This document shows, piece by piece, positions 19,472 through 61,159 of a DNA stretch of 64,000 nucleotides. The DNA is taken from assembly GCA_965112155.1 (NCBI GenBank), contig OZ218104.1. One strand, given 5' to 3'. The position numbers and the translations under genes were made by a program. Origin of the DNA: Podarcis liolepis. Its lineage: Eukaryota. The notes under the pieces are model-generated. The model did not search any database, had not been told where the DNA came from, and worked only from the letters and a program-made list of their open reading frames with translations. Positions within the stretch are counted from its first letter, which is position 1. Each line of letters opens with the position of its first letter.

Positions 19472-20911
19472 GTTTAGAGGTCCACTTGGAAGCCTCAGAA
19501 AAGGAGAAGCCAGTAATGTTATTGAATCACTTCAACTCCAGCTCAGCCAGGCCCACTGCTCAGGTTTTACCAGTGCAGAATGATGCCGTGTCCAGTCCAT
19601 CCGGTCACCACACCTTGCCAGTACAGATGATAGCTGCGGGCTCCCCTCACATCACTCCAATTAGAATACTGAACTCTATGCACAAATCAGAGCGAGGAAA
19701 TACAGACATGAAGCTCCTTTCGTCATCTATGCACTCGCTTTTGTCTTTAGAAGACAGGACAAAATTTTCACCTGGCACACCTCGAAGTGGCATCAAGATG
19801 GAGAAGAGCTTTGGGAGTACTGTTGTGGATGGGATGCCAGCCTCTCCCCATCAGCCCATGCAAGTGCTCTCTGGAGTTTCTGAAAATGGCTCCTCTACAC
19901 CTTCAATTAACTTTGGTCCAAGGACCAAAATGGTACATGCTTCTACTCTAGACAGAGTGGTGAAAACAACCCAGCAGCCGGGAATAATAGTGGAAACAAG
20001 CACCACAGCCACTGTAACTTCCAGCACCGTCTTCCATGTGGCACGACCCCCCATAAAACTCCTGGTATCCTCTTCAGTTCCTACTGATTCAACCATTGTG
20101 GGGCAGTCTTCCTGCTCCAATAATATGCAATTCAGTGTGTCCCCAGCAATAATAAACCCCCGGACTGCTCTCTATACAGCCAATACCAAAGTGGCCTTTT
20201 CTGCCCTGAGCAGTATGCCAGTAGCCCCAATGCCCAGCAGCAGCTTCTGTGCAAATAGCAACACTGCCTCTTCTAGCAGTCACCCCTCCACATCCTTTGC
20301 AAATATGGCAAACCTACCCAGTTGTCCTGCTCCCAGCTCCAGCCCCACGCTTTCATCAGCTGCCGAGAACAATTTCTACAACAGCAGTAGTAGTGGCTCA
20401 GGAGGAAGTATCCCAGTACCAAATCAGAATCACCACCATCACCACCACCATCAGCAGCAGCCTCCTGGATGCATGGTGTGCAGTTCCTGTGGCTGTAGTG
20501 GGAACTGTGGTTCAAGCGGCATGACTGTCAGTTATGCTAATTACTTCCAGCACCCCTTTTCCGGACCGTCAGTGTTTACTTTCCCATTTCTGCCCTTCAA
20601 TCCACTGTGCAGCAGTGGCTACATCAACACACAGCAGTACAACAGCAGCTCAGCCTTCCCTATGGTTCACTCTCCTTACAACAGTGGCATAACACCAGAC
20701 TCTGTCATGAGTGGGCAGTCTACGTTTGCAGTGCCACCAATGCAAAGCTTTATGGCAAGTACAGCAGGGGTGTACCAAGCACAGGGGATGATGAGCAACA
20801 ACAGTGGTACAGGCCATAAAAAGAATGGGAATCTGTCCTGTTACAATTGTGGAGCCAGTGGTCACCGAGCTCAAGACTGCAAGCAGCCACCAATGGATTT
20901 CAATCGACAAG
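19472..20911 (+). CDS. ZCCHC14: ZCCHC14 large coding exon (about exon 12): S/T/P-rich region, His run, Cys cluster, CCHC zinc knuckle
   Basis: 1440 nt inside ORF 19336-20916; EKEKPVMLLNHF...CYNCGASGHRAQDCKQPPMDFNRQ; knuckle fits CX2CX4HX4C. Confidence 0.96.
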
Positions 20912-21431
20912 GTTAGGAACATAATTGGCTTCCCAGAAGTGCAGTTGGTAGATTGCTCAGAATACAGGTTTGGCTGCTTGGGGAAAGGGGGTGGTAGATA
21001 AAGGAAAATCTGAAAATGGTCAGTAATTTAAAGTGATGGCAAGTCTGAGCATGTTCAAGTGGAATCCACTGTAGGTCTCACACTTTGCCAATAGTTTGTA
21101 CTTTTGTGGATGAGCAGTAGCCCTCTGAAGCAAACCTGAGAGAACCAAAGTACAGGAGTGGTAAAATGTTCCTCTGGCGTGAGCATGCAGAGCCCAGATA
21201 GTTTTGTGGGGTAATAAGGGGTTGGTTTCTTGTGGTAGTAAGCTTTGAGATTGCTCACGCTCAAAACCGGTATCCATGGTGCTCTTGCCTTATTTCACAG
21301 CTACTGCTAATATGTTCATTCCTTATCTATGAACAGCATGGTGCTCAACTGTGTGATGTGTCATTGCTTGTGAAATGTAGACTTCACAAAAGTCTTACAC
21401 GTGCTGACTTGTATTTCTCTTTTCCATGCAG

Positions 21432-26765: not shown

Positions 26766-27026
<261 letters not shown>

Positions 27027-27475
27027 TTAGAAATTCCAGGTTTAGCAACAGTCTCCTTTGCCACATCCAAGAATCACATGAATACCAGAAAGCATGTGTG
27101 ATTAGAGCACTTCTGAAGGCAGCCTCCTCACCCAAGCAACATCAGGGGGAGGGACTTGAAACTAAACTGATCTTATAAAGCCTCAAGTGAGACACTTAAG
27201 GCCTGCTGTGTTGCCTAAGAGGAAGGACAACACTGCTAGAGCTAATGTGCATGTTAGGTTGTTGCTTTTAGATGCTAACCACCCATTTTAACCATTTCAA
27301 TGGACTACAGAGCACATCAGTGCCAGCTACAGCAAGGAGTTTACTCAGTAACAGGCATCACACTCCAGAATTATAAAGAGCCCATATAATCAAGTTCCCT
27401 TTCTGTGAAGAGTTACCAATAGAGACGGAAAGCTGTGTCAGCGTAATTCCTGTTACGATCAAGCATCGGCAAATA

Positions 27476-27718
27476 CAGTGGTGCCACGCAAGACGAAATT
27501 CGTTCCGCGAGTCTCTTCGTCTTGCAGTTTTTTCGTCTTGCGAAGCACGGCTATTAGCGGCTCTTAGCGGCTTTAAGAAAAAGGAAACAAACTCGCAAGA
27601 ACTCGCAAGACGTTTCGTCTTGCGAAGCAAGCCCATAAGGAAATTTGTCTTGCGGAATGACTAAAAAAATGGAAAACTCTTTCGTCTTGCGTGTTTTTCG
27701 TCTTGCGAAGTACCACTG
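27476..27718. mobile_element. Tc1/pogo (Tigger-like) MITE in MAP1LC3B intron 3
   Basis: TA TSD; TIRs CAGTGGTGCCACGCAAGACGAAA and reverse-complement CAGTGGTACTTCGCAAGACGAAA; internal copies of TTCGTCTTGC. Confidence 0.88.
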
Positions 27719-28253
27719 TATGCTTGCCATGCAGAGTGTGGCACCGCTCCATATCAAGCAACCATCCTAACTTTGAAGTTGCAGAGGTGGGCAGGGATTG
27801 TCTGCTGAAGATCTCTGCCACCTTCCAAGTTGGGTGGAAAACTGGCATCTGCATGGCAAAGGCAGACCTGAAGAGCCTTGGCTCTAACAGAACCAACACA
27901 GCATCCCTCTCCCCACCAAAAAAACCACCTAGCCTCTTTCCTGCTCCTACCACTTCCTAGAGGCATACAGAACAACTACAGGCAGTGGCACTGAACAAAA
28001 CATTCTCCACTCAACCTCCAAGAAGTTGTGGCACCTTCAGGCAATGGATCCCAACCATGCACACTCCCTGCCAGGCTTTTCTGTAGGAAGGAGGGAGGCT
28101 TAGCAAGACCAGTTGTTGGTTTTTTTGCTTTGCCAACAAGTAGGTCAAACACTCTGGACCTTTGTTATGATTGTTACTTGACTTTTTTTTTAACTCACTT
28201 GGGAAACCCTTAATATACAGCACAAGCTACTGTCCTGAATGAGAGACCTTTCA

Positions 28254-28415
<162 letters not shown>

Positions 28416-28966
28416 TTAGGACTTTTCAGTATGGTGAGCCACAGGCATATTTTTGCTAGATACCTATGGGTTTGTTTAATGCAATTCTACTTTGTACTAC
28501 AGTGGTTTATAATTTTATTATTTCTATCATTTTATTGTATGCCACCTTGCATTTTTAATGAGGCTCAGCATTGAAATTCTTAAAACAAACCCAGTCACCT
28601 GAATTAAGCTGTGAAAAGGAGCTGCAATAGAGAAAACCCCAGCCTTGTGGGTAGAACTAATTCCGTTCCTGACACAGGTTTGCAGTGAAAGGCTAGCGTG
28701 CCCTCCTCCCCACCTGTCACCCCAATTTCAGCCCCTTCTCTTCTCCATTCAGTTATGCATAAACAGGGCAAGAGGACCACAATCAGGAAAACCTGGGAGC
28801 AGCAAACAATTGACTTCTGTTATGTAAAATGAAATGGAGGGAGAAAATAAAGATCTTAACTAGGGCAAATATCTTTGCAGCCTCTAGTATGGATGATTTC
28901 ACTGCTAGTCCCCAAAGTGCACGTGTTGCCACTACCTACCAGGTTATTTCCCTGATTAAAGTCTCA

Positions 28967-29110
<144 letters not shown>

Positions 29111-31479
29111 TCAGATATATAATATCTACACAGAACAACCTGTTATATTGGTGTTTCATTGCCCTGGAAGAGAAGCACACACAGAGGCAGCAGTTTGTAG
29201 GAAGGGTAGGATATAAATCAAATAAATAAATCATAAGCAGAATGAGAGGCGCTTAAACCACACCCACATTAGTATACCCAAGCTGATAGCATTAGAAGTA
29301 AGGTTAACTGGCAGTCTTTCTGGATCAGGGTGGGAATGCAACTCAAGCGCTGCTGAAAATTCATGCAGGGAATGAAGAAGCTACAGTGGAAAGGGGGAGG
29401 CACAAGAGAAAAAGGGGTACTTGCCCACTTTTGACTGTAGCCCCACAAATGAAGCTGCTAACTGATGCCACCCCCACTATACCTGTGTGCTAGTAGAAAT
29501 TCTGCAGCACAATTTATTAACAGGAAGGGTGGGGACAACTTAAGACAATGGGGGGGGGGGAGAAAATGCCATCCTAAAAATAAAGAAGCATAACCCTTCA
29601 TAGTGAAAAGTTAAAGGAGGCAAGTTAAGTTGAAGAAAAAGAAAAAAGTTGAGCTTAGTTGGTTTAAAGGCACAGAGTAGTACAACAAATCTGCTAAGGC
29701 TGAAGTAGTTCTAAATCTGAGAGCATTTGGGAAGCCCAAGGACCCAGTCTGAGGGCCATGGGAAAGGAGCAAACACAACAAAGAGTCTTATCGCATAAGA
29801 CTAGACTAGAGCCCACTTCACAGCTTATGTCATAATGAAATGTTAGTTTTAAGGTGCTACAAGACTCTTTGTTTTTACTGCTAAAAGGACTAGAAGTTAG
29901 TGAGAAAACATGGCTGTCCCCTCAAGGAAAAGTGCTCTATGTAAATTAAAAGTATAAAATATTAATTTCATCAAAGCATTTTAAATATATCTTATAGTTA
30001 TTGCATTCTTAAAGCTAAAGAGCTTCCACTAGGTTTCCCCACCCCCAGCCTAGAGGACTGTTGGTGTCCAAAACTCCTTTGCAAAGGAAAACAAACAGCT
30101 AGAACGACCTTTACTTTCGTTTTTCAGCGGCACAGCAGCAAAACAAAGCCTCAATTCTTTTTCCACTCCAACATGCAAGCAGGAAAACCAGTTTAAGAAG
30201 AACAAAAACAGTAACAACAAAAGCAACAGCCTAAGTCTTCCTGTATTTCTTTTTTAAGTGATAGTAATAACTAAGGGACATTTACAGTAGAACCTAACTA
30301 GGGCTTGTTACATCAGGATTTTTGGATCATATTACAAAGCTGAAACTTGGTGGACTTGGCTGGAAGGCTAGCTAATTCACAAGCCTTTGCTACAGCCAAT
30401 ATTTGTTATTTAATATGTCACTAACTCCTGAGAGGTGGAGGTAATTGCCCAACGTTGTTCCCAAAACTTCCTGCTTCAGTCTGGAGGTCACCCTCTGTTT
30501 TGGTCATCAACAGTATTAGGAAAATTGCAGCCCAATGATTCAACATTACCCTCTGCTTCCTCACATAACAACAAACTGACACAGCAGATCGGAGACAAAC
30601 AAATCCATGGAATCCAAGCAGCTGAACTGCTTAAAGTTGTGCAGGCAATAACCCAGGAAAGAATAGGGAAGGGGATCCGTCATAAGTACTGAATACTTTC
30701 ACATCGCTAAGGGAAGACACCCCAGATAAAGCCTGGGAATGAAACTACAAACACATGCAGCATCCAGACAAGAAGTTCTACACTACAGCATCCAGCATAT
30801 ACGGTAATCTGGCCTTCTCACATTCAAAATACAATATACTGAAGATAAACAGCACCATCTCCAGTGTTTTGACAACTGATCAACAAAGGGTAGGCCCACC
30901 ACCCTCTAAGTGCTGGGGGTGAGGGGAAAGGGGTGCTACAGCAGAGTGCAGAGCAGGCACGATGCCAGGCAGGGAAAGAGGCTGGCACGGGGGGGGGGGC
31001 TGTTTACTCCTCTGGCTCTTGAGCTCCACGGAAGCCGGCAGAGCCGTCAACAGGCCCCTGCATTCGCCTCAAACACAACACCTCAGGCCCCTCCAACCCC
31101 GGCCTCCAACCACCAACAGTCATCCTCAAGGCTAGCCTTCAATCCTTAAGGGGTTTCAAGGGGGGGGGGGGAGTAATGCAAGGGGGTCCTCCTTACACTC
31201 CCAATTTGGGGGGATGGGGAATAACAGTCATGGTGGGTGGTGAATCACTCTGCCCAAGATCCAGAACTAGGAGATGGGGGAATTACTGTATTAAAGGGGG
31301 GATACGACTGTGCCACCAACCCATAAACCCGCCCCCCATGGCCGACGGAGAGTGCGTTAACAGGCCAAGCAAGGACCTCCGTGAGGGAAGAAGGGGGAGA
31401 AGCCTCATTTCCCCCCCCCAACAATGGGAGGGGGTGTTTTGCCTTTTCCTCAACTCTTCTTCCCTTGCCCCAGCGAGAC

Positions 31480-32240
31480 CCACTTACCCTCTCCCCACCG
31501 CCACACATATAGCACACATAGCGCCCGCCGCCACGTTCATGGACCATCTCCCCAGCTCTTCACTGTTCCCTACTTCTGAGTATCCCCCCTCCAGTCACCA
31601 AGCTCCCCCCCCCCACTCAAATCCACCTCGCAGGTGTTCCCTTGGCCGTCCCACTTGATGTGGTGCGTCTCTCCCCAACGCCCCCCCCGACTCAGTAACA
31701 GCCCCCTCTTGCCCCCCCCCCTCGAGGGGCTAACGCACAAGCCCTTCCCCCACCGAAAGTGCGTCGCTGCTTGAAGCTCTTTTCCGAGGGCATCGCGGCG
31801 GCGGCGGCGACTGGCTCCTCCTCCACCTCCTTCGACTCTCTCCCCTCTCAGCGGCGCGGACCATCCACACCAAAACCCTCGTCCGCGATCAGCTGACCAA
31901 CGAAGCCCCGCCTCTCCCGAGCTGATTGCGTCACAGGGAGGGAGGGACAGACGGACGAAGGAAGGAAAAGCAAGAGGCCGGGCATTCGTAGGCTTCGCCG
32001 CGCGGTAGTGCGCGTGCGTAGCGACGGAAGCCCGACGCCTCAAGCAAGGAAGAGGAGAGGAGAAGGAGGGGAGTCGACGTTGGTGACGCGAGCGCGCCTG
32101 CGCAGGCGAAACGAGCCGCGGGCGGGGGAGTCAGAAGCTGAGCCTGCCGCAGGGCGGCGCCAAAACAGTGACTTCATCGCGCACAAACGCAGCCCCGCCC
32201 ATCACCATGGTTACCATATCACCCTCCCCGGAGGAAGAGA
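31480..32240 (-). promoter_or_regulatory. MAP1LC3B CpG-island promoter
   Basis: Dense CpG around exon 1; C/EBP-ATF site ATTGCGTCA 31925-31933; NRF1-like sites 32009-32020 and 32094-32108; CGGAAG (ETS) 32025-32030; GC box 32193-32200; RFX X-box-like 32201-32214. Confidence 0.8.
31754..31793 (-). CDS. MAP1LC3B: MAP1LC3B exon 1 (coding part)
   Basis: gccgccgcgATG then MPSEKSFKQRRTF, donor G|gtgggg; total CDS 375 nt = 124 aa. Confidence 0.96.
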
Positions 32241-38594: not shown

Positions 38595-38964
38595 ATGGCG
38601 GTCTGCGCTCGGCTTTGCGGCGTGGGCCCGGCGCGGGGCTGCCGGCGGAGGGGGGCTCAGCAAAAGGGGACGGCGGGCGACAGCAGCGAGCCAGACACGG
38701 ACCCTGAGGAGGGAGGCGGCGGCGGCTGCGGGGAGGCGGCGGCGGACGACGACGCTGCCGAGGAGCGCATCGAGGGGGCGGCCTTGGCCGAGAGCAGCCC
38801 TCGCGGCCGGGCTCCGCTCTCGCTCCTCGACCTCCCACCGGAGCTGCTGGTGCAGATATTCGGCTCGTTACCCGGCACCGACCTGCCCAACCTGGCCCTC
38901 GTCTGCAGCGCCTTCAGGCGCATCCTCCGCACCGACACCATCTGGCGCCGGAGGTGCAAAGAAG
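38595..38964 (+). CDS. FBXO31: FBXO31 exon 1 (F-box)
   Basis: [12 protein letters not shown]...[47 protein letters not shown]; donor G|gtgagc. Confidence 0.97.
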
Positions 38965-46904: not shown

Positions 46905-49325
46905 AGCTTTTCCCCCCCAATGAGTTTTATTAAGTTTCAATATTTTTAATCTATAAAATCAAGATGCATTTTCATCTTTTCTCTTTATTTTTATCAACAT
47001 CCCACCCCGTTTTCCTTTTCTTTTTTGTTTCCTTTTCTTATTAGTTTTCCCAATTATTAATAAATCAGTGCCAAATTACATTAAACTTAATACAATTTCC
47101 CCAAAAACTTGACTTCCCACTCTTCGTCCTAGTTGTGTCCTTCTTCCCCCCCCCCCCCCCATTGCGGCTTGAAATTACATTATATTCAATTTAAAATTAT
47201 TAATTATTATTTGATCAATTCCTGCTCATATATTTACATAACAACATATTCCCTTAAAGAACAAAAGAGGTTATCCACTTTAAAGCATTACTTATTACTT
47301 CTATATTAATTTTCCTTTTTTCTTTTTTAAATTAATCTTTATTGGTTTAAAATCAAAGCATACACACTACAAAAGCTTGAAAAAAGAAAAAAAGAAAAAG
47401 GAAAGAAGATGAAACAAAAGCAGCACGATACATCTCTAACAAACAATAAACAGTAGAACAATACATCACAAATTCACAAAAATGTTCCGACCATCAACTT
47501 CCAACTTCCTTGATATGGGTTCTTTGTTTTCCTAATTACTTGCCTCTATTTTTCAATAAACTTTGTCTTTATTAAATATTGTTTGACTTCTTTATACCTT
47601 AATCAATTCTGAGTGTTATTCGAAGCATTCTAAAGTTTTTATATGGGGACACTGTTCTTTTGAATATTGTCTATAGATCTCCCATTCTCTTTTGAACTTT
47701 TGGGTTGATCGATCTCTGATCTTTTTTGTCATATACAGTATGCTAGTTTCATGTATTCAGGCATTTTTACTTGCCACTCCTCTTTTGATGGAGTTTTATC
47801 TCCTTTCCATCCCTTGGCTATCAGCATCCTTGCTGCCACTGTTGCATTAAAAAAAATCCTTCTTTTCTCCCTTAGGATGTCTGATGCCATTATGCCTAAT
47901 AGGAAGGTTTTGGGTTTCTTGTTGAACGTTATTTTGAACAGTTTTTTAAAAAATTATTGTATATAAGTTCCCAAAAGCTCTTTATTGTTTTGCAACCCCA
48001 CCACATGGGGTACATCGTGCCCTCTAACTCTCTACACCTCCAGCATAAAGTTGAGTTGGTTCTGTACATTTTGGACAGTTTGTTGGGGGTGATGTACCAC
48101 CTGTATAGCATCTTCATAAAATTTTATTTTATAGTGAAGCAGGCCGTGAATTTCAATTCCCTTCTCCATAAATTTTCCCATTCCTCCATTTGAATATTGT
48201 AACCAAATCTTTCGTCCACTTAACCATGACTGATTTTACCTCTTCTTCCTTTACTTCCCAATCTAATAATAATCTGTACATTTTGGAAAGTTGTTTATTT
48301 TTTAATAAACCTTTTTCTAATTCCAAAATTTCCATCACAAAACCTTTTTTTTTATCAGCCTTAAAGATTTTCAGTTGGTGGTATTTCTAACTAACCTGTA
48401 AGAATTTTTTCAGTTTTAGCTGGTTTTTATCCTCTTCTAATAAATCTTTGTATGTTGCCCAATTCTTATTCATGGGTTTTTTTTCTTTCCTGTGAAGGCT
48501 TCAAGTGGAGATAGCCACCAGGGTTATCCCATATTTATCCCATACACCATATAATGATTTCCTTAACACATGATTCAAAAAACCCCTGTGAACCCTTACT
48601 TTCCCATAACAACAAAAACAAGCCACTTTCCTTTCTTTTCATCTTGCGTGTGCTGCCATCTATCTTCTCCACCATCCATCACCTTTCAGTCATTATTCAT
48701 CTTCACTTTTCCAGTCTACACTCTTCCAAGCCAGTGTCCATTTCCTGTCCAGTTCCATATTGTTTTGCAATTCATGTTGTCTCCACAGCATTTGCCCCAC
48801 CCCATTTTCCATGGAGTTGTTGTTTCTCCCCTTCTGCTGCACCCTATCTTCTATCTATTAAATCACAATATTATAATCTAATTACTTCTGTTGCTCATAG
48901 CTCAAATGCTACTCGCAAATTCATCATATTATAATATTTATTTAAATAGTCCAAAAAAGGCATCCATTCTTCCATAGAACACTCATCATTAGATTCTCTT
49001 AATTTTGCTGTTAATTTTCCCGGTTCTGCATAGTCCATTATCTTACTTATCCATTCTTCTTTGGTTGGAACGTCTTCTGTTTCTGCACATATAGAATCCT
49101 AGCTGCTGATAAACAACTTTAACATTTTTTGGGATTTCTGCTCCTATGATTCCTAACAGAAATGTTTCGGGCTTTTATATCTATCTATCTATCTATCTAT
49201 GCCCGAAACATTTCTGTTAGGGATCATAGGAGCATATATATATTCATTTTAAACATCTTTTTTATTTTGTCATTTATCACTTCCCAAAATACCCTCGTTT
49301 TCTTGCAAGTGCACCACATATTGGG
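46905..49325 (-). mobile_element. Decayed L1-like LINE cluster, probably two nested elements
   Basis: Minus-strand ORF fragments with L1 ORF2 C-terminal motifs (KMLYRWYITP...CWRC..EGTMYPMWWGC..IKSFW); two T-rich tail starts at about 46905 and 47318. Confidence 0.8.
49139..49234. repeat. 34-bp inverted repeat with a (TATC)n loop
   Basis: Arms 49139-49172 and 49201-49234 are complementary with one T-G pair; 28-nt loop. Confidence 0.95.
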
Positions 49326-49516: not shown

Positions 49517-49753
<237 letters not shown>

Positions 49754-50366
49754 TGAAAGTGAATTTGTAAGTGAATTTTTAACTTGAGCAACTCAATAGT
49801 CTAGACCGCAGCAGAGCTGTGTGTCAACAGCAATGTTTCTCTTATCTGCAAATCCATATTGAGATTAGTTCATTTAGCACTTACATGCACTCCAGAAATG
49901 TCAAGATTTAGAACAGCATTACCTCTATTTCCCATCTCTCTAAACTGAAATACATTTTTAAAAGGCATCAGCACTCTGCGTGACTCTTTTATACATGAGT
50001 GTTTATGATTAGCAGGCTTAGCAGCTCCCCATTCCCCAGTGATGTATAAGTCTGGTGCTTCTATTGTAGGGACTCCAGTAGTCTGGAGGATAGATCCTTG
50101 AATATCCCCAACCCTTCAACTGGCAACATGAGCTGAAGGAGTCAATCCTGTGAGCCATATTTTGCTGATTTAAAGAAAATTCATTTTAAAAAAAGAAAAA
50201 ACCCTGCAAGAGATCATCCCTGATGCCCCTTATTTCAGACAGCCTCTCCCACCCTCCATTTCTACAATAGTATGCCAAGTTTGAAAACATCTGGTGGTGT
50301 GGTGGTAAGAAGAGGTGGTAAAAAGAGGACCAGAGTTCTCATACTCACCCTGCTGTGTCTGCTCAG

Positions 50367-50453
50367 GTATAAACCCACGAGTGAAATCAGGGCGTTTTAT
50401 GAAAATCCTTCCCGACTACGAGCACATGGAATACAGAGATGTTTACACCTGCC
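50367..50453 (+). CDS. FBXO31: FBXO31 candidate alternative cassette exon 2b (29 codons)
   Basis: tactcac branch point, ctgtgtctgctcAG acceptor, C|gtatgt donor; 87 nt, phase 1-1, stop-free: (R/G)INPRVKSGRFMKILPDYEHMEYRDVYTC. Confidence 0.75.
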
Positions 50454-51317
50454 GTATGTACCTTCCATTGGCAAATGTTTTTTGCGTTGTGTTAGCATGG
50501 AGTGTGCCTGCTTCACCACTTAATTGACAAGCTAAGCTTCCCAGGGCCATTTGGGGGACAGATATGTTTTGAGAGCAGCGGGTGCCAAATCCAGCAGACT
50601 AAGAAAGAATGCTAACCACCACTGCTATGTCAAGGTATAGGAGTAAGCAGTGCTACAAACAAATAAGGTAGCAGTAGCTGTGAGTCTCTAGAGCTATAAA
50701 AGTGCATTGAGGAGCAGATGGGACCGTCTTGAGGGTGGATAGAGTTTGGGTAGAGCCTTGTAGTCCCACTCACAGAGTTTTGTATCAACACTAGGGGAAG
50801 GGGATGAGACCCAGGAAGATGAACTGTTGGCATCTCAAAAGAAACTGCTGGAAAGTTGAAGTTTTCAGGAAGCATCAAGTCAGAAGCTTGATAGAATTAC
50901 ATGCCAGGTTATTGCAGGGAAAGGCATCCACAAATCTACTCACGAGGGGCAAGGTTGCCCACCCCTCTGGCAAGGTGGACACCTAACATCCCTACCTCAG
51001 AGAGCTCACTCCATTGCATTTTTCAAGCAGGTAAGATATAGTAGGAGCCTTTTCTGAGCAGTGAAAAAGGAGTCTTGCTGCTGATTTTGACCTTCTCCCT
51101 ACCTTGCACAATTGAGAGAAGACCTGGCCTGTCTCCCAAACCCCCTTTCCTTGCCAGGGGATGGGACCAGAAGTAAGAGCCTACCTAAGTAAGCCAAGCC
51201 AGTATCTGAGGACCCCTGACTGGGAAGTCCCTCCCAGTTGCTTCCTGGCTGTAGCAAGAATACTGCTGTCTTTAAGCCAAGTGAGAAAACTTCTTGCCTC
51301 TGATCAGGTCTCCAATA

Positions 51318-51543
51318 CAGTGGTACCTCGGGTTACAGATGCTTCAGGTTACAGACTCCACTAATCCAGTAATAGTACCTCGGGTTAAGAACTTTGCTTC
51401 AGGATGAGAACAGAAATCACGCAGCAGCGGTGCGGCGGCAGTGGAAGGCCCCATTAGCTAAAGTGGTACCTCAGGTTAAGAACAGTTTCAGGTTAAGAAC
51501 AGACCTCCAGAACGAAGTAAGTTCTTAACCCGAGGTACCACTG
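51318..51543. mobile_element. Tc1/pogo (Tigger-like) MITE
   Basis: Perfect 18-bp TIR CAGTGGTACCTCGGGTTA; TA TSD; internal TIR-motif repeats. Confidence 0.9.
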
Positions 51544-52587
51544 TAGTTCAGAGGAAAGAGCCATTGCCTCTAGCGTGATACCCTTTTGAATTGGGTCCCA
51601 AAGCAGTTCCTTTCTCACAAAGCATCTCTGGCATCCCAAAAAGAGATTCAAGGGGATGTAGATCAGTAACTCAGGATCCTCTAGAGCAGCAGAGAAAGCT
51701 CTGGGAAATTGTGACATCCATGCTGGGAAGCCAGAAACTTATGGTCTTCCCATGTAAGTGTGTGCTTTTTTCCATTTCAGCAAGGGTAGCAGTCCCTAAA
51801 ACATAAACTGGAATTCTGAAATTGAATCCCAATCTGCTAATTGGCCACCCCTGTTCTAGTGGAAATAATGTAGCTTTTTTTTTAACCAAAGAACAGAAGG
51901 AAAAAAATTTTGAGCAGCAACTCTGTATTCCTAGCCCTTGGTAAGCTGCTTTCATTCAGTGAGTTCTTCATTGAGTCATCTGGTTCTTGTGTGAGTTTGA
52001 TTGGAAAATAAATCAGTGGGTTTTTGAGAGTCACTGCTGGTGCATTCATTTTGGTCCAAAATGGATCTTGAGGCTGCCTATTACATATTCAGCTCTGTAA
52101 AATAATAGTGAAAGGAAAGAAGCACAGTCTAAACAGTCTGAAGATTTTAGACACTGTGAAATAGAAACTTTATTTTATGAAAACAAGTCTTTCTGTCTGA
52201 GCTCAGAAATCCACATTATATTCACACTGCTCCATCCATGTGATGCTCACATGCTTCTAAGTCATGGGTTCCCCAAAATGCCAATTAACCCTCAGGATGA
52301 ATAGTCTGTGGTTTTGCTTTGGGTAACGACGAGCTGCAAGCCGGGCAACCATTTAACATACACAGCTGCCCCCAGATTGGAAATGCAGTGTTGGAAAAGG
52401 CTGCATCTCTGGAATTGTTGCCTCTTAAAGAAATAAACACTGCTAGTAAGACTGAAATGCATCAGAGCTGTGCAGAGGGACAGATGTGCTCTTGTAAAAA
52501 GTCCCATTTGGAAGCGCACACGCTCCTAAACCTTTATTCTGCCATTTATCCCCCTGACCACATTATTTTATTTTGCCTTCCCTTGTC

Positions 52588-53089: not shown

Positions 53090-53293
53090 TGAGCCTAAAG
53101 CTTTCAGGGTACCACCTTTGCATGCCAAAGAGCCCAGGTTCAAACCCTGCCATATCCAGTAAAAAAAAAAAAAAGATTAGGAAAGCAGATGAGGGCAAGA
53201 CCTCTGCCAGAGGCAGCTGCCAGTCAGAGTGGACAGCAGTGAGCTAGATGGAAAAACAGTTTGACCTGGTATAAGGCAACTTCCTATGTTTCT
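53090..53293 (+). mobile_element. Squam3-like SINE
   Basis: ctttgcatgc...ccaggttcaaaccctg...gagctagatgg...gtataaggcaacttcctatgtt, similar to 9761-9952. Confidence 0.65.
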
Positions 53294-53844
53294 AGAATGG
53301 GAGCTATTCCAATGGCACAGGGGGCTTTTTACTTTATGACATAAGCTAAACTGTTGTGTGCATGAGAGGAACATATTTGGAATGCTGTTTTCTGAGGTGA
53401 GCCTGCTTTTGGCTTGATGATAGCCTCTGAACTGGGCTGTAAAGCAGGTGGGCTTTACTGGGAACCTGTGGCAACCTTGTCCTGTGAGGGCCTTGAGAAG
53501 CAATGGGATGGATGAGCTTGGGTGTGCTACAGGAGACTCTTTTTGGTGTTCCTTTGGCTTAGTGACTGATTTACGTGGGTAGTTTTTGATTTCTTTAAAA
53601 GTGCTAAGGCTCAGTCTTGCTTAGTTCCCCCTGATCCCAGTCGTATGGGGATATGAACTATGCTGACTCAGTGGGTAGCATCCAGTAGTAACTCTGCCGA
53701 GAATAGGCCAGTTGAAGTTAATAGACATGACTAACTTAGGTTCATTAGTTTCAGTGGTTCTTCTCTGAGTAGACTTACATTCCAGTGACTCTTCAGTCAC
53801 ACTTCCTGCAAGGAATTGGAAAGTGAGGCTAGTCACCATTCAGA

Positions 53845-53985
53845 AATATAGAAAGCTGCCTTATACCAAATCAGATCATTAGTCTCACTTATTACTGTCT
53901 ACACCAATTGGCAGTGGTTCTTCAGGGTTTCCCAGCTCTACCTGGAGATGAACCTAGGATCTTTTGCATGCAAAGTGGATGCTTT
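53845..53985 (-). mobile_element. Squam3-like SINE, antisense
   Basis: atagaaagctgccttatacc...gaacctaggatcttttgcatgcaaag is the reverse complement of the same family. Confidence 0.6.
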
Positions 53986-55692: not shown

Positions 55693-55769
55693 TTCTCCAC
55701 AGATACCGGCACATCTTGGGACTCTGGCAGCCAGACATCGGACCGTATGGGGGGCTGTTGAACGTAGTG
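55693..55769 (+). CDS. FBXO31: FBXO31 exon 3
   Basis: 77 nt, (L)[25 protein letters not shown]; donor gtgagt. Confidence 0.97.
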
Positions 55770-55873: not shown

Positions 55874-56283
<410 letters not shown>

Positions 56284-58087
56284 TAATGAAGATACCCTGA
56301 GCTGCTTTTCAGCCTGTTGGATGATTACTACTTTAAAGCAGGGGTTGTCAACTTGTTGTGCCCCCCCCCCATATAGTGTACTCTAATGCCCATTAGCCCC
56401 AGCAGGGATAGGATTCAGGGTTTCTTGTGTAAACTTCCCTTGGCTTAGATTTCTTCCCCCAGCACCTGGAAGCCAAAGGTCACTTTTTGGTTCAACTGTC
56501 AGCTGCTGTCCAGGTGCTTCAGTGCCATTCAGTGTGGTCTATGCTTTGCATTGCTAGCCAGGGAGTGACTTATAGCTTCCTTGAGTTGGGCTCTTAAAGA
56601 ACTGAAACTTTTCTTGCTCTGGACACGATCCAAATGATTGTGCAGCTAACAGAAAGCTATGTTCCATGTGCATTTCTCCCCATACTGCCTGGCAAACAAC
56701 TTTCAAAGCTTATGGGAGAAATGCACATGGAACATAACTATCTGTTTGCAAGGAGTGGTGGTGGTATGCCTTGACCCCACCTCATTTAATAATATAAGGC
56801 TGCTTCTGAAAATGGAGCAGAGGAATGAGAGAGAGATTGCACACAACCTCTGGTGTGACCTGTGGGCACTCCTGTTTAAAATAGAGAAGGCAGGAAAATG
56901 CTGTTCCGCCTTTCCCAGGAAAACCTTGAGACGAAGGTTCCAAGAAAAGGGAGACCTGCTCTAAGACGAGCTTCCGATGTTGTCTTTGTATAAACATTGT
57001 TGATGTAAGCACTGAAAACTTGGCCTTTAGCAAAGGTTACCACCAGCAACTGTTAATCTGAGATAGTGCTTTTTCAACATATGTGGTAATTTAGTGCCAC
57101 TGGGAATGAAGTTAGCTCACAGAATGTTTTATTTCAGTCTTTATAGCACATGTGCAGGCCTAGGCATGTTCACAGGCACACAGAGAGGCTTGATGAATTA
57201 GGCTCTGTTGCCCTGTATTGACTAGGGAGGAAGAGACAGTTATCTGCGATTGGGGATTAAAGTCACAGTTGGCAATGCAGAGTTAAGGCTGAAATGCTGC
57301 TGCTGTGCTCTGGCACGAATATGCCTCATGATCGAGCAGTTCATTGTCAAGAAGCAAGCAGGGCTGGGAATTTGTGGGGGTGGGGTGATAAATCCTTTTC
57401 CACGGCTGACAAGTAATCATGCTGTCTGCAGCAAGATCATTAGGATGAATTAGGCTATCTGTATCCTCTGAGGGTTCAATGCGTATTGTAACACTAAAAC
57501 GACACCATCCTTGCAGAAGCAGATTCTTTTTTATTCTTCCATCTTAAAGCAAATGCTTGAAACAAAGCTTTGGAAATGTGTGTAAGAGATGGCTTCTCCA
57601 CAGTTCAGTGTTTTCTACTGCGACTCCACATGATGGTGTCATTCTTTTGAAAATACTGTGTGCCTTTTCCTCCACCTGTCTGTTCCACCACCTGAAACAT
57701 AGAAAATCTAACAAACAAACGAAGCAGTTGTTGGGGGCAAGGGATTCATTTACAATAGTCTGGAAGATCTGCTGTGGTTTCACAGTCAACAAACAATGGC
57801 CTTAAGAGGACTTGTGTCTGGAAGCACCCAGTTATTGTGTTTAAATGAGTGAAATCATTCTGCCTTTGGCTCTGCAAGCAGATCAGTTTATGGATCATCT
57901 GTTTGGAATTCTAGAATTTGTAGTCCAGTAACAGGAAGGGGCATTTTTAATGGGTGAGCAGCTTGATGAAAGCAGAGGAAAGCAATTGCCTCTTGTCCAT
58001 ATCTACCAGTGCTTTCTTATTGGAGGAAGGGGTCCCAGGCAATTGCAACTCCTTGACTTTGCTTCTCTCTTTGGGGTGCTGTTGTAG

Positions 58088-58198
<111 letters not shown>

Positions 58199-59096
58199 TA
58201 AGGGGCGGGGAAGGACCCTTATTTCATCCTCCTGCTTCTGCAGTCAGAAAGAGAGAGAAAAATCAGAATTTTTAGAATAAATTTTTCAAGTAAAGTAGTA
58301 CAGTTGCAAACTCCCCAAACAGTGATAACATTTGAAAGGGAAGGGGTGCATTATCTAGGTGTGGTTGCTTTTTGCTTCAGAGAACAGTGGAGACTTATGA
58401 TGCCTTTGTAATCATCGTAATTCCTTCTAGTTCCAATGTTCTGGTTTACGTGCCATTGTTTATGTACCCTAAACAGTACCATCCATTCACAAGATCAGGA
58501 GGTATCAGCAGACTTGGGCAAGCCCAAAGGTTTGCAGAAGTATTCATATTATTATTATTATTATTATCATTATTATTACCTCACCTTTTTACCTAGTGGG
58601 ACTCAAGGCAGCTTACAGATAAATAAATGCTAGAACCATGAATTGGTTTGTTTTGGCAAATTCTGTTCCCCATCTTCAAAAGCTGTAGATGCCTTTGGCA
58701 AGAACTGGAATGGTGCAAGGGAATGACAGTGAATGGAGACCATAACAATGAGGAATGGAGGGAGCAGATGGGTCTTGAGTCTAAGAAATAGTAGCTATGG
58801 TGGGTACAGAGGGAAGGCCAAAGGTGCACAGCAACATGGTTTTCAGTCATCTCCCTACCAGAAACTCACTCTGCTAATTTGAGTCCCTTTCAGATTCTGC
58901 TCATGCATGGCAAAGCTGCATTCAACATGCAAGAGAGCTAGAGTTTTGATTTTTGAAGGCATCATTGCTTTTAAAACAGGGAAGGTGATCTAGTCAGATG
59001 CCAAACTGTATGCCTTGTCAGTGATTCAGAGATTGCACCAAACAGGTTGTGGCCTGCCTGCATTATATCAAGCTGTGGTTCTTTTTAATATTCCAG

Positions 59097-59250
59097 CAAC
59101 TGCTTGACATACAGACGCATCTACCTCCCTCCACGGAGTGCCATTGATCTCATCAAGCCAGGCCTTTTCAAGGGGACATATGGGAGCCATGGTCTTGAAA
59201 TAGTCATGCTCAGCTTCCATGGAAAAAAGGCCAAAGGAACTAAAATCACA
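59097..59250 (+). CDS. FBXO31: FBXO31 exon 7
   Basis: 154 nt, [51 protein letters not shown]. Confidence 0.97.
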
Positions 59251-59304
59251 GTGAGCATCTGGCTTTCTCTTTTCAAGTATGTATTGTCACTGTTGCCATG
59301 CCAA

Positions 59305-59435
59305 ACAAAATGATCAAGGGAATGGAGCAACTCCCATTTGAGGAAAAGGGTTGCATCGTTTGGGACTTTTTAGTTGAGGGAAAAGTGAGTAAGAGGTGGC
59401 AAGATAGAAGTTTATAAAATTATGTACAGCATGGC
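59305..59435 (+). mobile_element. CR1 LINE ORF2 fragment
   Basis: aaaatgatcaagggaatggagcaactccc...gggactttttagtt...atagaagtttataaaattatg resembles the CR1 ORF2 C-terminal region. Confidence 0.6.
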
Positions 59436-59786
59436 TCCCCAAGTTCTAGATCATGACTAAACACTACTTCACACCAGCTCTCAATGAGTAAACAAATAGT
59501 ACAGCTACTTAGACTAGCAGGGCAAAGGAAGTGGGCAAGACCTACTGAAAGTGATGAACAGAGTGGAGAAGAGAGATTTGCTAGTACCACAATATACAGG
59601 CAAGGCAAGGCACAGTGGTTCAGGATGTGTTCTGTTTCAAATAAGGGTCTGGGGAAGGGAATGAGGAGAAACTGGTTTGGCACGGATGAGGAGGCTGTTC
59701 GAGGCACTGGAATGGGATGGAGTCAGTGGCCATTAGCATTCATAGCAAAGTCATTCCGCTCTCTTTCCTTCCTGCCTATCCTCCAG

Positions 59787-60157
59787 GGTGACCCTAACAT
59801 CCCAGCTGGCCAGCAGACAGTGGAGATTGACCTGGCGCATCCCATCCAGCTGCCTGATATTGAAAACCTGAGCAATTTCAGCGAACTCTCCCGCATTGTC
59901 CTGGAAGTGCAGGAGCAGGTGCGGCGAGAGCAGCAGCAGGAGGAGGAGGGTGGCCTTGAAAAGGAGCACCAGCCGCAGGGCCAGGAAGAGGAAGAGGAGG
60001 AGGAGCAGCCACAGCCAGGCCCCTCTCAGCAGGAAGCAGGCAGAGGAGCAGAAGAGGGAGCCGTGGCCCAGGGCTCTCCCCCAGCCTCATGCCCTTTTGT
60101 GCTGCCTGGTGGCATTGCATCCAGGAATGAGGATTACCCTCGGACCTGCAGAGCATG
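59787..60157 (+). CDS. FBXO31: FBXO31 exon 8
   Basis: 371 nt, [16 protein letters not shown]...Glu/Gln-rich loop...[20 protein letters not shown](C). Confidence 0.96.
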
Positions 60158-60936
60158 GTAAATATGAAAAGCCAAGAGTTGTGTTTCAAGGGGCATCCCT
60201 GGAGGGTGTGGAGCAAATTGCCCATGAATATCCTTTGGGCTTCTGTCCAGTTCAACCACACCCAATATTTTATGAAGTATTTGCTCCCAGAAAAGAAAAT
60301 ATTCTCTCCCCCCCCCCACCCTCATTTATTTAATTCAATGTATGGCAGTAGCCCCAATTATTATGATTTCTGTTCTTCCCTTTAAAAAGAAATTTTACCC
60401 AAGGTGACTTAATAATGCATTTATAAGACAATTCCTAAACTCTGCCAGTTCATAAAATATGATGAAAGCATTACCAGATCATAACATTATAACACAAGAA
60501 AATAACAAAGCAATAATAAAGCACAATTTAAAATATATATATTTTTAAAAAATCTGGTGGAAATAAAAACTGTTTAATGCAGCAAATACAATATTATTGA
60601 AAAGAGAGAAAGAGAAACACAAAATAACCCCACCTCCAGCCCTTTCCAGGAGATCCAATCTTTCTAAGAAAAGAGCTGCTGCTCTATCAGGGTGTGAAGC
60701 AGGGAGGAGCTTCTGGTTGGAGCTATTAGCATATATTGGATTAATGCTTTTTAGAGGAGACAGGGAGCTTGAAAATCTGGAAGTCACATAGCATAGGACA
60801 TGTTAATTCTTGGAAATCTCTGTCAACATGGAAGCCAGGTAACCTGGCAGTTCTGTTTGATGGGGCAAGGTGTGTGATGCCTGGATTTTCCTGTGGAAGG
60901 TATATCAATGCATCCTTTATTTTCTTTTGTTCTTAG

Positions 60937-61159
60937 TTTCTACGGCACGGGGCTCATAGCTGGCCATGGCTTCACCAGCCCTGAGCGAACACCTGGCGTC
61001 TTTGTTTTGTTTGATGACGACCGTTTTGGCTTCATCTGGCTGGAGCTGCAGTCTTTTAGTCTCTACAGCCGCATCAAGGACTCCTTCCAGAACGCAGATG
61101 CTCCCTCGCAGGAGGCTTTCGATGAAATGTTGAAGAACATCCAGTTACTTACATCATGA
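60937..61159 (+). CDS. FBXO31: FBXO31 exon 9 (coding part)
   Basis: [22 protein letters not shown]...[11 protein letters not shown]; core CDS sums to 1620 nt = 539 aa (568 aa with exon 2b). Confidence 0.97.

Follow-up and report, generated by a model that had tools for sequence, protein, structure and literature searches.

The FBXO31 gene of the lizard Podarcis liolepis raises the question of whether an 87-nt open segment in its second intron is an exon of the gene and, if so, where that exon came from and what its 29 codons bring to the protein. The segment, here termed E2b, lies in a 64,000-nt stretch of DNA (hereafter the window), and an initial annotation had described it as a hidden, diverged duplicate of exon 2. 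The window carries a complete FBXO31 gene on the plus strand (Table 1), with Podarcis muralis being the closest named homologue (97.6% over exon 1 in tblastn searches with annotated FBXO31 proteins). The insertion point of E2b follows the F-box (Pfam 69-114) and precedes the substrate-binding domain, and in the long FBXO31 isoform both the F-box and the cyclin-D1-binding domain are intact. Several other features of the neighborhood can be recorded. Coding pieces that we take, from their motifs, to be MAP1LC3B-like occupy 26800-31793 on the minus strand, head to head with FBXO31, and an open frame on the plus strand at about 20815-20915 contains a CCHC zinc-knuckle motif like that of a retroelement gag or a ZCCHC gene. 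Exon 4 (55877-56047), which is part of the beta-domain, is also skipped in annotated Podarcis X4/X6, Dermochelys X3 and a Phrynosoma model. The introns around E2b harbor inverted repeats of 26-46 nt with 84-92% complementarity (49134-49239, 51309-51552 and 53116-53975), which are probably small transposon remnants and could affect pre-mRNA folding.

Table 1. FBXO31 features in the 64,000-nt window
Feature	Position	Strand	Basis and remarks
FBXO31 coding exon 1 (N-terminus and F-box)	38595..38964	+	tblastn; F-box matches 5VZT; donor G|GTGAGC; end phase 1
Exon 2, 72 nt, phase 1-1	49641..49712	+	tblastn; two short post-F-box helices; its end begins a helix completed by exon 3
Intron between exon 2 and E2b, 654 nt	49713-50366		
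Conservation island (branch point, acceptor, E2b, donor)	50324..50463	+	blastn of L001
Branch-point-like heptamer TACTCAC, A at -20	50342..50348	+	sequence; L001 comparison; use as branch point presumed
Pyrimidine tract, short and purine-interrupted, with two TGC/YGCY motifs, and acceptor AG (50365-50366)	50349..50366	+	
Cassette exon E2b, 87 nt, 29 codons, phase 1-1, open frame	50367..50453	+	
E2b donor GTATGT, non-consensus C at -1	50454..50465	+	sequence
Exon 3, 77 nt	55693..55769	+	tblastn, short-form model; finishes the helix and begins the beta-domain
Other six FBXO31 coding exons (substrate-binding beta-barrel)	55877..61159	+	approximate tblastn limits; Pfam PF12014 on homologues

The sequence signals of E2b are those of an exon. 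Canonical splice sites, a length that is a multiple of three, equal phases and the lack of a stop codon are all found, and the coordinates, the TACTCAC heptamer, the AG acceptor, the C|GTATGT donor and the 1-1 phase agree in every respect with the initial annotation. It is also correct that CpG is retained, as there are four CpG in the 87 nt versus 0.67 expected, a count reached by 1.3% of overlapping 87-nt windows of intron 2. Splice signals alone are not decisive, because a loose AG..GT open-frame filter yields 14 candidate segments in intron 2, five of which overlap E2b. It is conservation that proves E2b to be a real exon. The metagenome locus L001, 2.3 kb in length, has a sole blastn match in the window, a stretch of 142 columns with 91.5% identity around E2b. 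Within the exon, 84 of 87 nt are identical and the codon changes comprise three synonymous and no non-synonymous ones (dN 0, dS 0.21), while the flanks agree at 19/20 of the last intron nucleotides and at 10/12 of the first donor nucleotides; L001 carries the consensus-like TACTGAC where the window has TACTCAC. A more distant comparison is provided by L002, a fish-type locus with flank identities of 13/20 (last intron nucleotides) and 9/12 (donor), against which E2b gives a dN of 0.079, a dS of about 2.1 and a dN/dS of about 0.04, with pS (0.71) being near saturation. For exon 2, the corresponding dN is 0.355, as opposed to 0.079 for E2b. These comparisons show that the E2b peptide is under purifying selection.

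Conservation of the peptide likewise reaches far back among the vertebrates. When identity to the window is scored over 23 residues of exon 2 and 28 residues of E2b, both are complete (23/23 and 28/28) in gecko, duck, turtle, alligator, rat, opossum and echidna, and the values for exon 2 and E2b, respectively, are 22/23 and 28/28 in a caecilian, 23/23 and 26/28 in Cercocebus, 12/23 and 25/28 in sturgeon, 11/23 and 24/28 in medaka, 16/23 and 23/28 in white shark, 12/23 and 19/28 in lamprey, 16/23 and 19/28 in coelacanth and 15/23 and 14/28 in lungfish. In ray-finned fish, shark and lamprey, E2b is more conserved than exon 2. All 50 distinct variants of E2b keep the same two prolines and one serine, and the serine stands in an Arg-x-x-Ser context, a putative kinase-site-like motif. 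Individual lineages exhibit peculiarities of their own, as judged from the variant orthologues inspected (P0119, P0120, P0122, P0123, P0118, P0020, P0140 and P0124). Human and the Old World primates score 26/28 over E2b, and human and Old World monkeys have two E2b substitutions in common; some cetaceans carry Cys in place of Arg at the E2b junction, and constraint on E2b looks relaxed in lungfish, coelacanth and phyllostomid bats, the bats showing several changes and one single-residue insertion.

Since E2b is conserved from lamprey to mammals, it must be older than the split between lampreys and jawed vertebrates. The comparison across vertebrates that had been proposed found it retained far beyond the amniotes, to lamprey, with the reading frame intact in every lineage examined. 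The insert is found in none of 38 divergent FBXO31 homologues, seven of which are named (two amphioxus, limpet, sea urchin, chiton, tick and annelid) and the remainder of which are non-vertebrate judging by their divergence, and it is missing from both of the hagfish models seen, which does not by itself establish its absence from the hagfish genome. From these sequences, E2b appears to be a vertebrate addition to FBXO31. Nine diverged, vertebrate-type FBXO31-like proteins (P0180, P0186, P0187, P0190, P0216, P0225, P0226, P0236 and P0287) were also encountered, all of which are without E2b; their exon-2 helix motif contains an aromatic residue. These are possibly paralogues or retrocopies.

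The description of the exon as hidden does not hold, whereas the accompanying suspicion that it might already be annotated as a predicted isoform turned out to be well founded, as E2b is present in annotated FBXO31 isoforms of many vertebrates, and RefSeq lists it for numerous species, among them members of Podarcis and Lacerta. With a 40-residue query consisting of the E2b peptide and its in-frame flanks, all 114 of 114 candidates were scored, and the named matches are FBXO31 isoforms from mammals, birds, turtles, alligator, squamates, frogs, caecilian and tilapia. Cluster look-ups place the exon in rat NP_001401855.1, Podarcis raffonei X4, Lacerta agilis X4, catshark and white shark, and a lamprey-seeded search adds Lethenteron (X1) and Lampetra. 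It is skipped in annotated mouse NP_598526.3, P. raffonei X5, gecko X2, white shark X2 and Petromyzon X4 and X5, and it is missing from 5VZT/5VZU, the sole solved FBXO31 sequence, in agreement with its reported absence from the canonical human protein. Both forms are annotated in lamprey, white shark, gecko, Podarcis raffonei and opossum, with the evidence for both consisting of annotation and assemblies rather than read counts and with most E2b annotations being predicted (XP) models. Full-length Logan proteins from contigs of 1.9-3.7 kb occur with E2b (P0148, P0155 and P0377) and without it (P0376), and contigs of this size are most simply read as spliced transcripts. Several annotated short isoforms begin at a Met within E2b (P0327, P0349, P0358 and P0334), and human CRA_c (P0020) runs from E2b into the intron. 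For human, a knock-down study lists in its Table S1 an FBXO31 cassette event (16:87380856:87393901) with dPSI values of -0.14 and -0.15 (PMC6771400). The sizes of its flanking exons, derived with an additional coordinate as 72 and 77 nt, match exons 2 and 3 of the window, and we infer that the event is E2b, although the table leaves the exon unnamed. The three FBXO31 exons of VastDB Table S4 do not include one of 87 nt.

How the exon is used and how it arose are best considered together, since the initial annotation envisaged a tandem duplicate of exon 2 that is either added to it or exchanged for it. Linkers could be classified in the 347 of 584 stored proteins that carried both anchor motifs. 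The counts, which reflect the queries rather than expression, are as follows: 165 skip E2b, 167 are exactly additive, seven are additive with a near length, three have E2b without exon 2, four skip both and one was not inspected. Exon 2 and E2b are spliced together in 174 of the 347, including rat NP_001401855.1, and such co-splicing is far from rare. The additive form with 29 extra amino acids is therefore well represented, whereas substitution is not supported as the main mode, being confined to one protein of Myotis lucifugus and two Monodelphis domestica models (P0022, P0023 and P0359). Because additive forms outnumber substitution forms by 174 to 3, we regard E2b as a cassette exon. That the two exons are mutually exclusive duplicates, either of which can provide the linker and its helix, would accord with their equal phase, their matching 3' motif and the exon-1-to-E2b isoforms of these two species. 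Nevertheless, this seems very unlikely in view of the class counts; moreover, an intron of 654 nt is no steric obstacle to splicing the two together, and a search for FBXO31 in the supplements to two human catalogues (PMC8373072 and PMC5740500) gave no match, while the control TPM1 was found there.

As for the origin of E2b, the proposed duplication of exon 2 is plausible but weakly supported: the last eight codons match at the donor, and the first 21 residues are unlike exon 2. The two exons share their 1-1 phase and are similar in length (72 and 87 nt). When the donor is used to set the register, the final eight E2b residues fit the ancestral helix motif, with P being about 2e-5 for the window and 5e-4 for lamprey in a test that was post hoc. 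When a profile is built from the single unit present in the 38 divergent homologues, exon 2 scores 14.5 bits against it (0/5000 shuffles as good) and E2b scores 5.4 bits (20/5000, and 45/5000 for lamprey E2b), while unrelated 29-mers from the same protein reach 6.3 bits among 443 windows. At a position where exon 2 of jawed vertebrates mostly has Cys or Ser, E2b also retains the aromatic residue most frequent among the divergent homologues. On this sequence evidence we consider it probable that E2b arose by duplication of exon 2, whole or partial, in which case it would be a tandem copy, made before lampreys and jawed vertebrates separated, of the entire exon 2 or just its 3' portion. A possible, though less probable, alternative is that it was recruited from intron sequence and that its last codons were shaped into an exon-2-like form by selection on the junction-spanning helix. 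Such an origin is consistent with the missing likeness over the first 21 residues, with a profile-profile alignment of the two exons (hhalign) that spans eight columns at a probability of 2.6% and is equaled by 22 of 300 column shuffles, and with a nucleotide identity of 13 of the last 24 nt and little similarity further on. It is less easily reconciled with the donor-register match, with the few shuffles that attain the profile scores of the lizard and lamprey exons, and with the consideration that immediate tolerance would be expected for a duplicate and not for a random insert within a helix.

It is the placement of E2b within a predicted helix that suggests what its inclusion would do to the protein. 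An AlphaFold model of the short form (gecko X2; pLDDT 85, pTM 0.81) has exon 2 as helices 123-129 and 133-141, with pLDDT at 79-94 over residues 121-140 and with the exon 2/3 junction at the end of the second exon-2 helix. In the corresponding model of the long form (gecko X1; pLDDT 83, pTM 0.80), the end of E2b forms helix 162-170, and pLDDT is 48-62 over residues 121-160 and 95 over residues 161-170. Superposed on 5VZT_B, the short form matches 418/418 residues at 1.4 A and the long form 415/418 at 1.5 A; Foldseek gives TM scores of 0.97 (short) and 0.95 (long) with rmsd values of 2.4 and 4.0 A. The initial annotation had considered an altered SCF geometry possible, which is unsupported because the modeled core is unchanged in the long form: the F-box-to-barrel arrangement of 5VZT is kept, albeit in a model that likely remembers 5VZT. 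That structure was released in January 2018 and is presumably part of the AlphaFold training set, which would favor both the swap of helices and the unchanged geometry. The input alignment, by placing the invertebrate helix on the end of E2b, favors the same outcome. The models predict that the end of E2b replaces the exon-2 helix, that approximately 40 residues loop out and that the spacer between the F-box and the barrel is not lengthened. Among the 38 invertebrate-type homologues, the loop before the swapped helix varies in length.

From these features, a sequence of events can be proposed for the long form. The splice signals of E2b, weak but conserved, would result in partial and regulated inclusion. 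A single helix spans the junction of exons 2 and 3. An included E2b would therefore have to provide the first half of it with its last eight residues, which would be suited to this by carrying the ancestral helix motif. The displaced exon-2 helix, together with the 21 novel residues, would then form an appendage beside the F-box, leaving the F-box and the substrate pocket unmoved. The long form is accordingly expected, as a prediction, to still join the SCF and bind C-terminal degrons, and the added, vertebrate-specific surface would tune its partners, location or activity. Since the near-invariance of the peptide exceeds what a mere spacer would need, the loop of approximately 40 residues likely binds a partner, a candidate role for a region that is modeled at low confidence. 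Overall, we lean towards the view that E2b is an ancient, optional exon of FBXO31 that swaps the helix copy behind the F-box and extrudes a docking loop of approximately 40 residues.

Two other explanations of why the exon is kept bear on this view. Inclusion of E2b could act as an off-switch or geometry switch, in that the brace helix would be disturbed and either SKP1 binding weakened or the substrate shifted relative to the E2, with the long form being less active or a decoy. The splice junction does interrupt a helix in the module next to the F-box, a module that can be overlaid on those parts of FBXO3, FBG3 and Cdc4 that bind SKP1, and in the long form the model confidence of exon 2 drops and the Foldseek rmsd rises. 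We nevertheless find such a switch unlikely, as the terminal helix motif of E2b, being the same as that of exon 2, preserves the brace, the pTM and the superposed core are nearly unaltered, and hundreds of millions of years with hardly a change at any of the 28 residues are more than a disruptive spacer would call for. Still less plausible is the notion that E2b is maintained mainly for RNA-level reasons, whether as a splicing-regulatory element or as a switch to downstream starts or intron-retaining transcripts, with the peptide being minor. This could account for the 84/87 nt identity, conserved flanks and low dS of L001, for the short isoforms that start inside E2b and for the read-through of human CRA_c, but not readily for L002, where synonymous sites near saturation combined with a low dN reflect protein-level selection, nor for a frame that has stayed intact in all the lineages covered.

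When compared with known systems, E2b resembles several without fully coinciding with most of them. Its closest counterpart is the RefSeq long isoform of FBXO31 (rat isoform 2, NP_001401855.1, and 'isoform X1' of many vertebrates), which has the same exon in the same place (28/28 in rat) and does not differ in kind; neither a function nor an age nor an inclusion pattern is recorded for it in the databases. Symmetric cassette exons are a class characterized by a multiple-of-3 length, equal phases, conserved flanks, low dN and the occurrence of both forms. E2b shares all of these, with both forms annotated, but is distinct in that it inserts inside a predicted helix and would bring a replacement for the half helix that it displaces. 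With tandem-duplication substitutions and mutually exclusive exons (PMC8373072 and PMC5740500) it has in common an adjacent position, equal phase, a common motif and an ancient vertebrate age; unlike them, it is used additively, and its homology is detectable over eight codons only. The canonical short FBXO31 (5VZT/5VZU), the receptor for C-terminal amides (PMC11821526), has the F-box, barrel and pocket in common with the long form, while the solved chain is without the 29 residues and the long model superposes on 415/418 of its residues. In the available part of the main text of PMC11821526, the words 'isoform' and 'exon' do not occur.

E2b is already known as annotation and is apparently unstudied as biology. 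No study of the FBXO31 long isoform was found in the open literature, though subscription papers, the structure paper or supplements may hold one. The protein itself has attracted considerable interest, as it reads C-terminal amide damage marks, is the site of a dominant disease mutation (D334N) and is highly expressed in muscle and brain, according to PMC11821526; it is also reported to be under trial as a handle for targeted degradation. The current findings are thus of value not for discovering E2b but for showing how old and how constrained it is and for offering a concrete hypothesis on its structure. In its boldest form, which we put forward tentatively and hold to be possible rather than probable, this hypothesis states that all vertebrates make a second SCF-FBXO31 receptor, in which a duplicated exon approximately 500 million years old serves as a helix-swap switch, and in which a near-invariant loop beside the SKP1 interface recruits a vertebrate-specific partner or alters, in particular tissues, the set of damaged, C-terminally amidated proteins that is removed. 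An exon that is better conserved than its neighbor from lizard to lamprey likely does something, and if E2b is included in human tissues, variants within it could be missed when only the canonical transcript is read.
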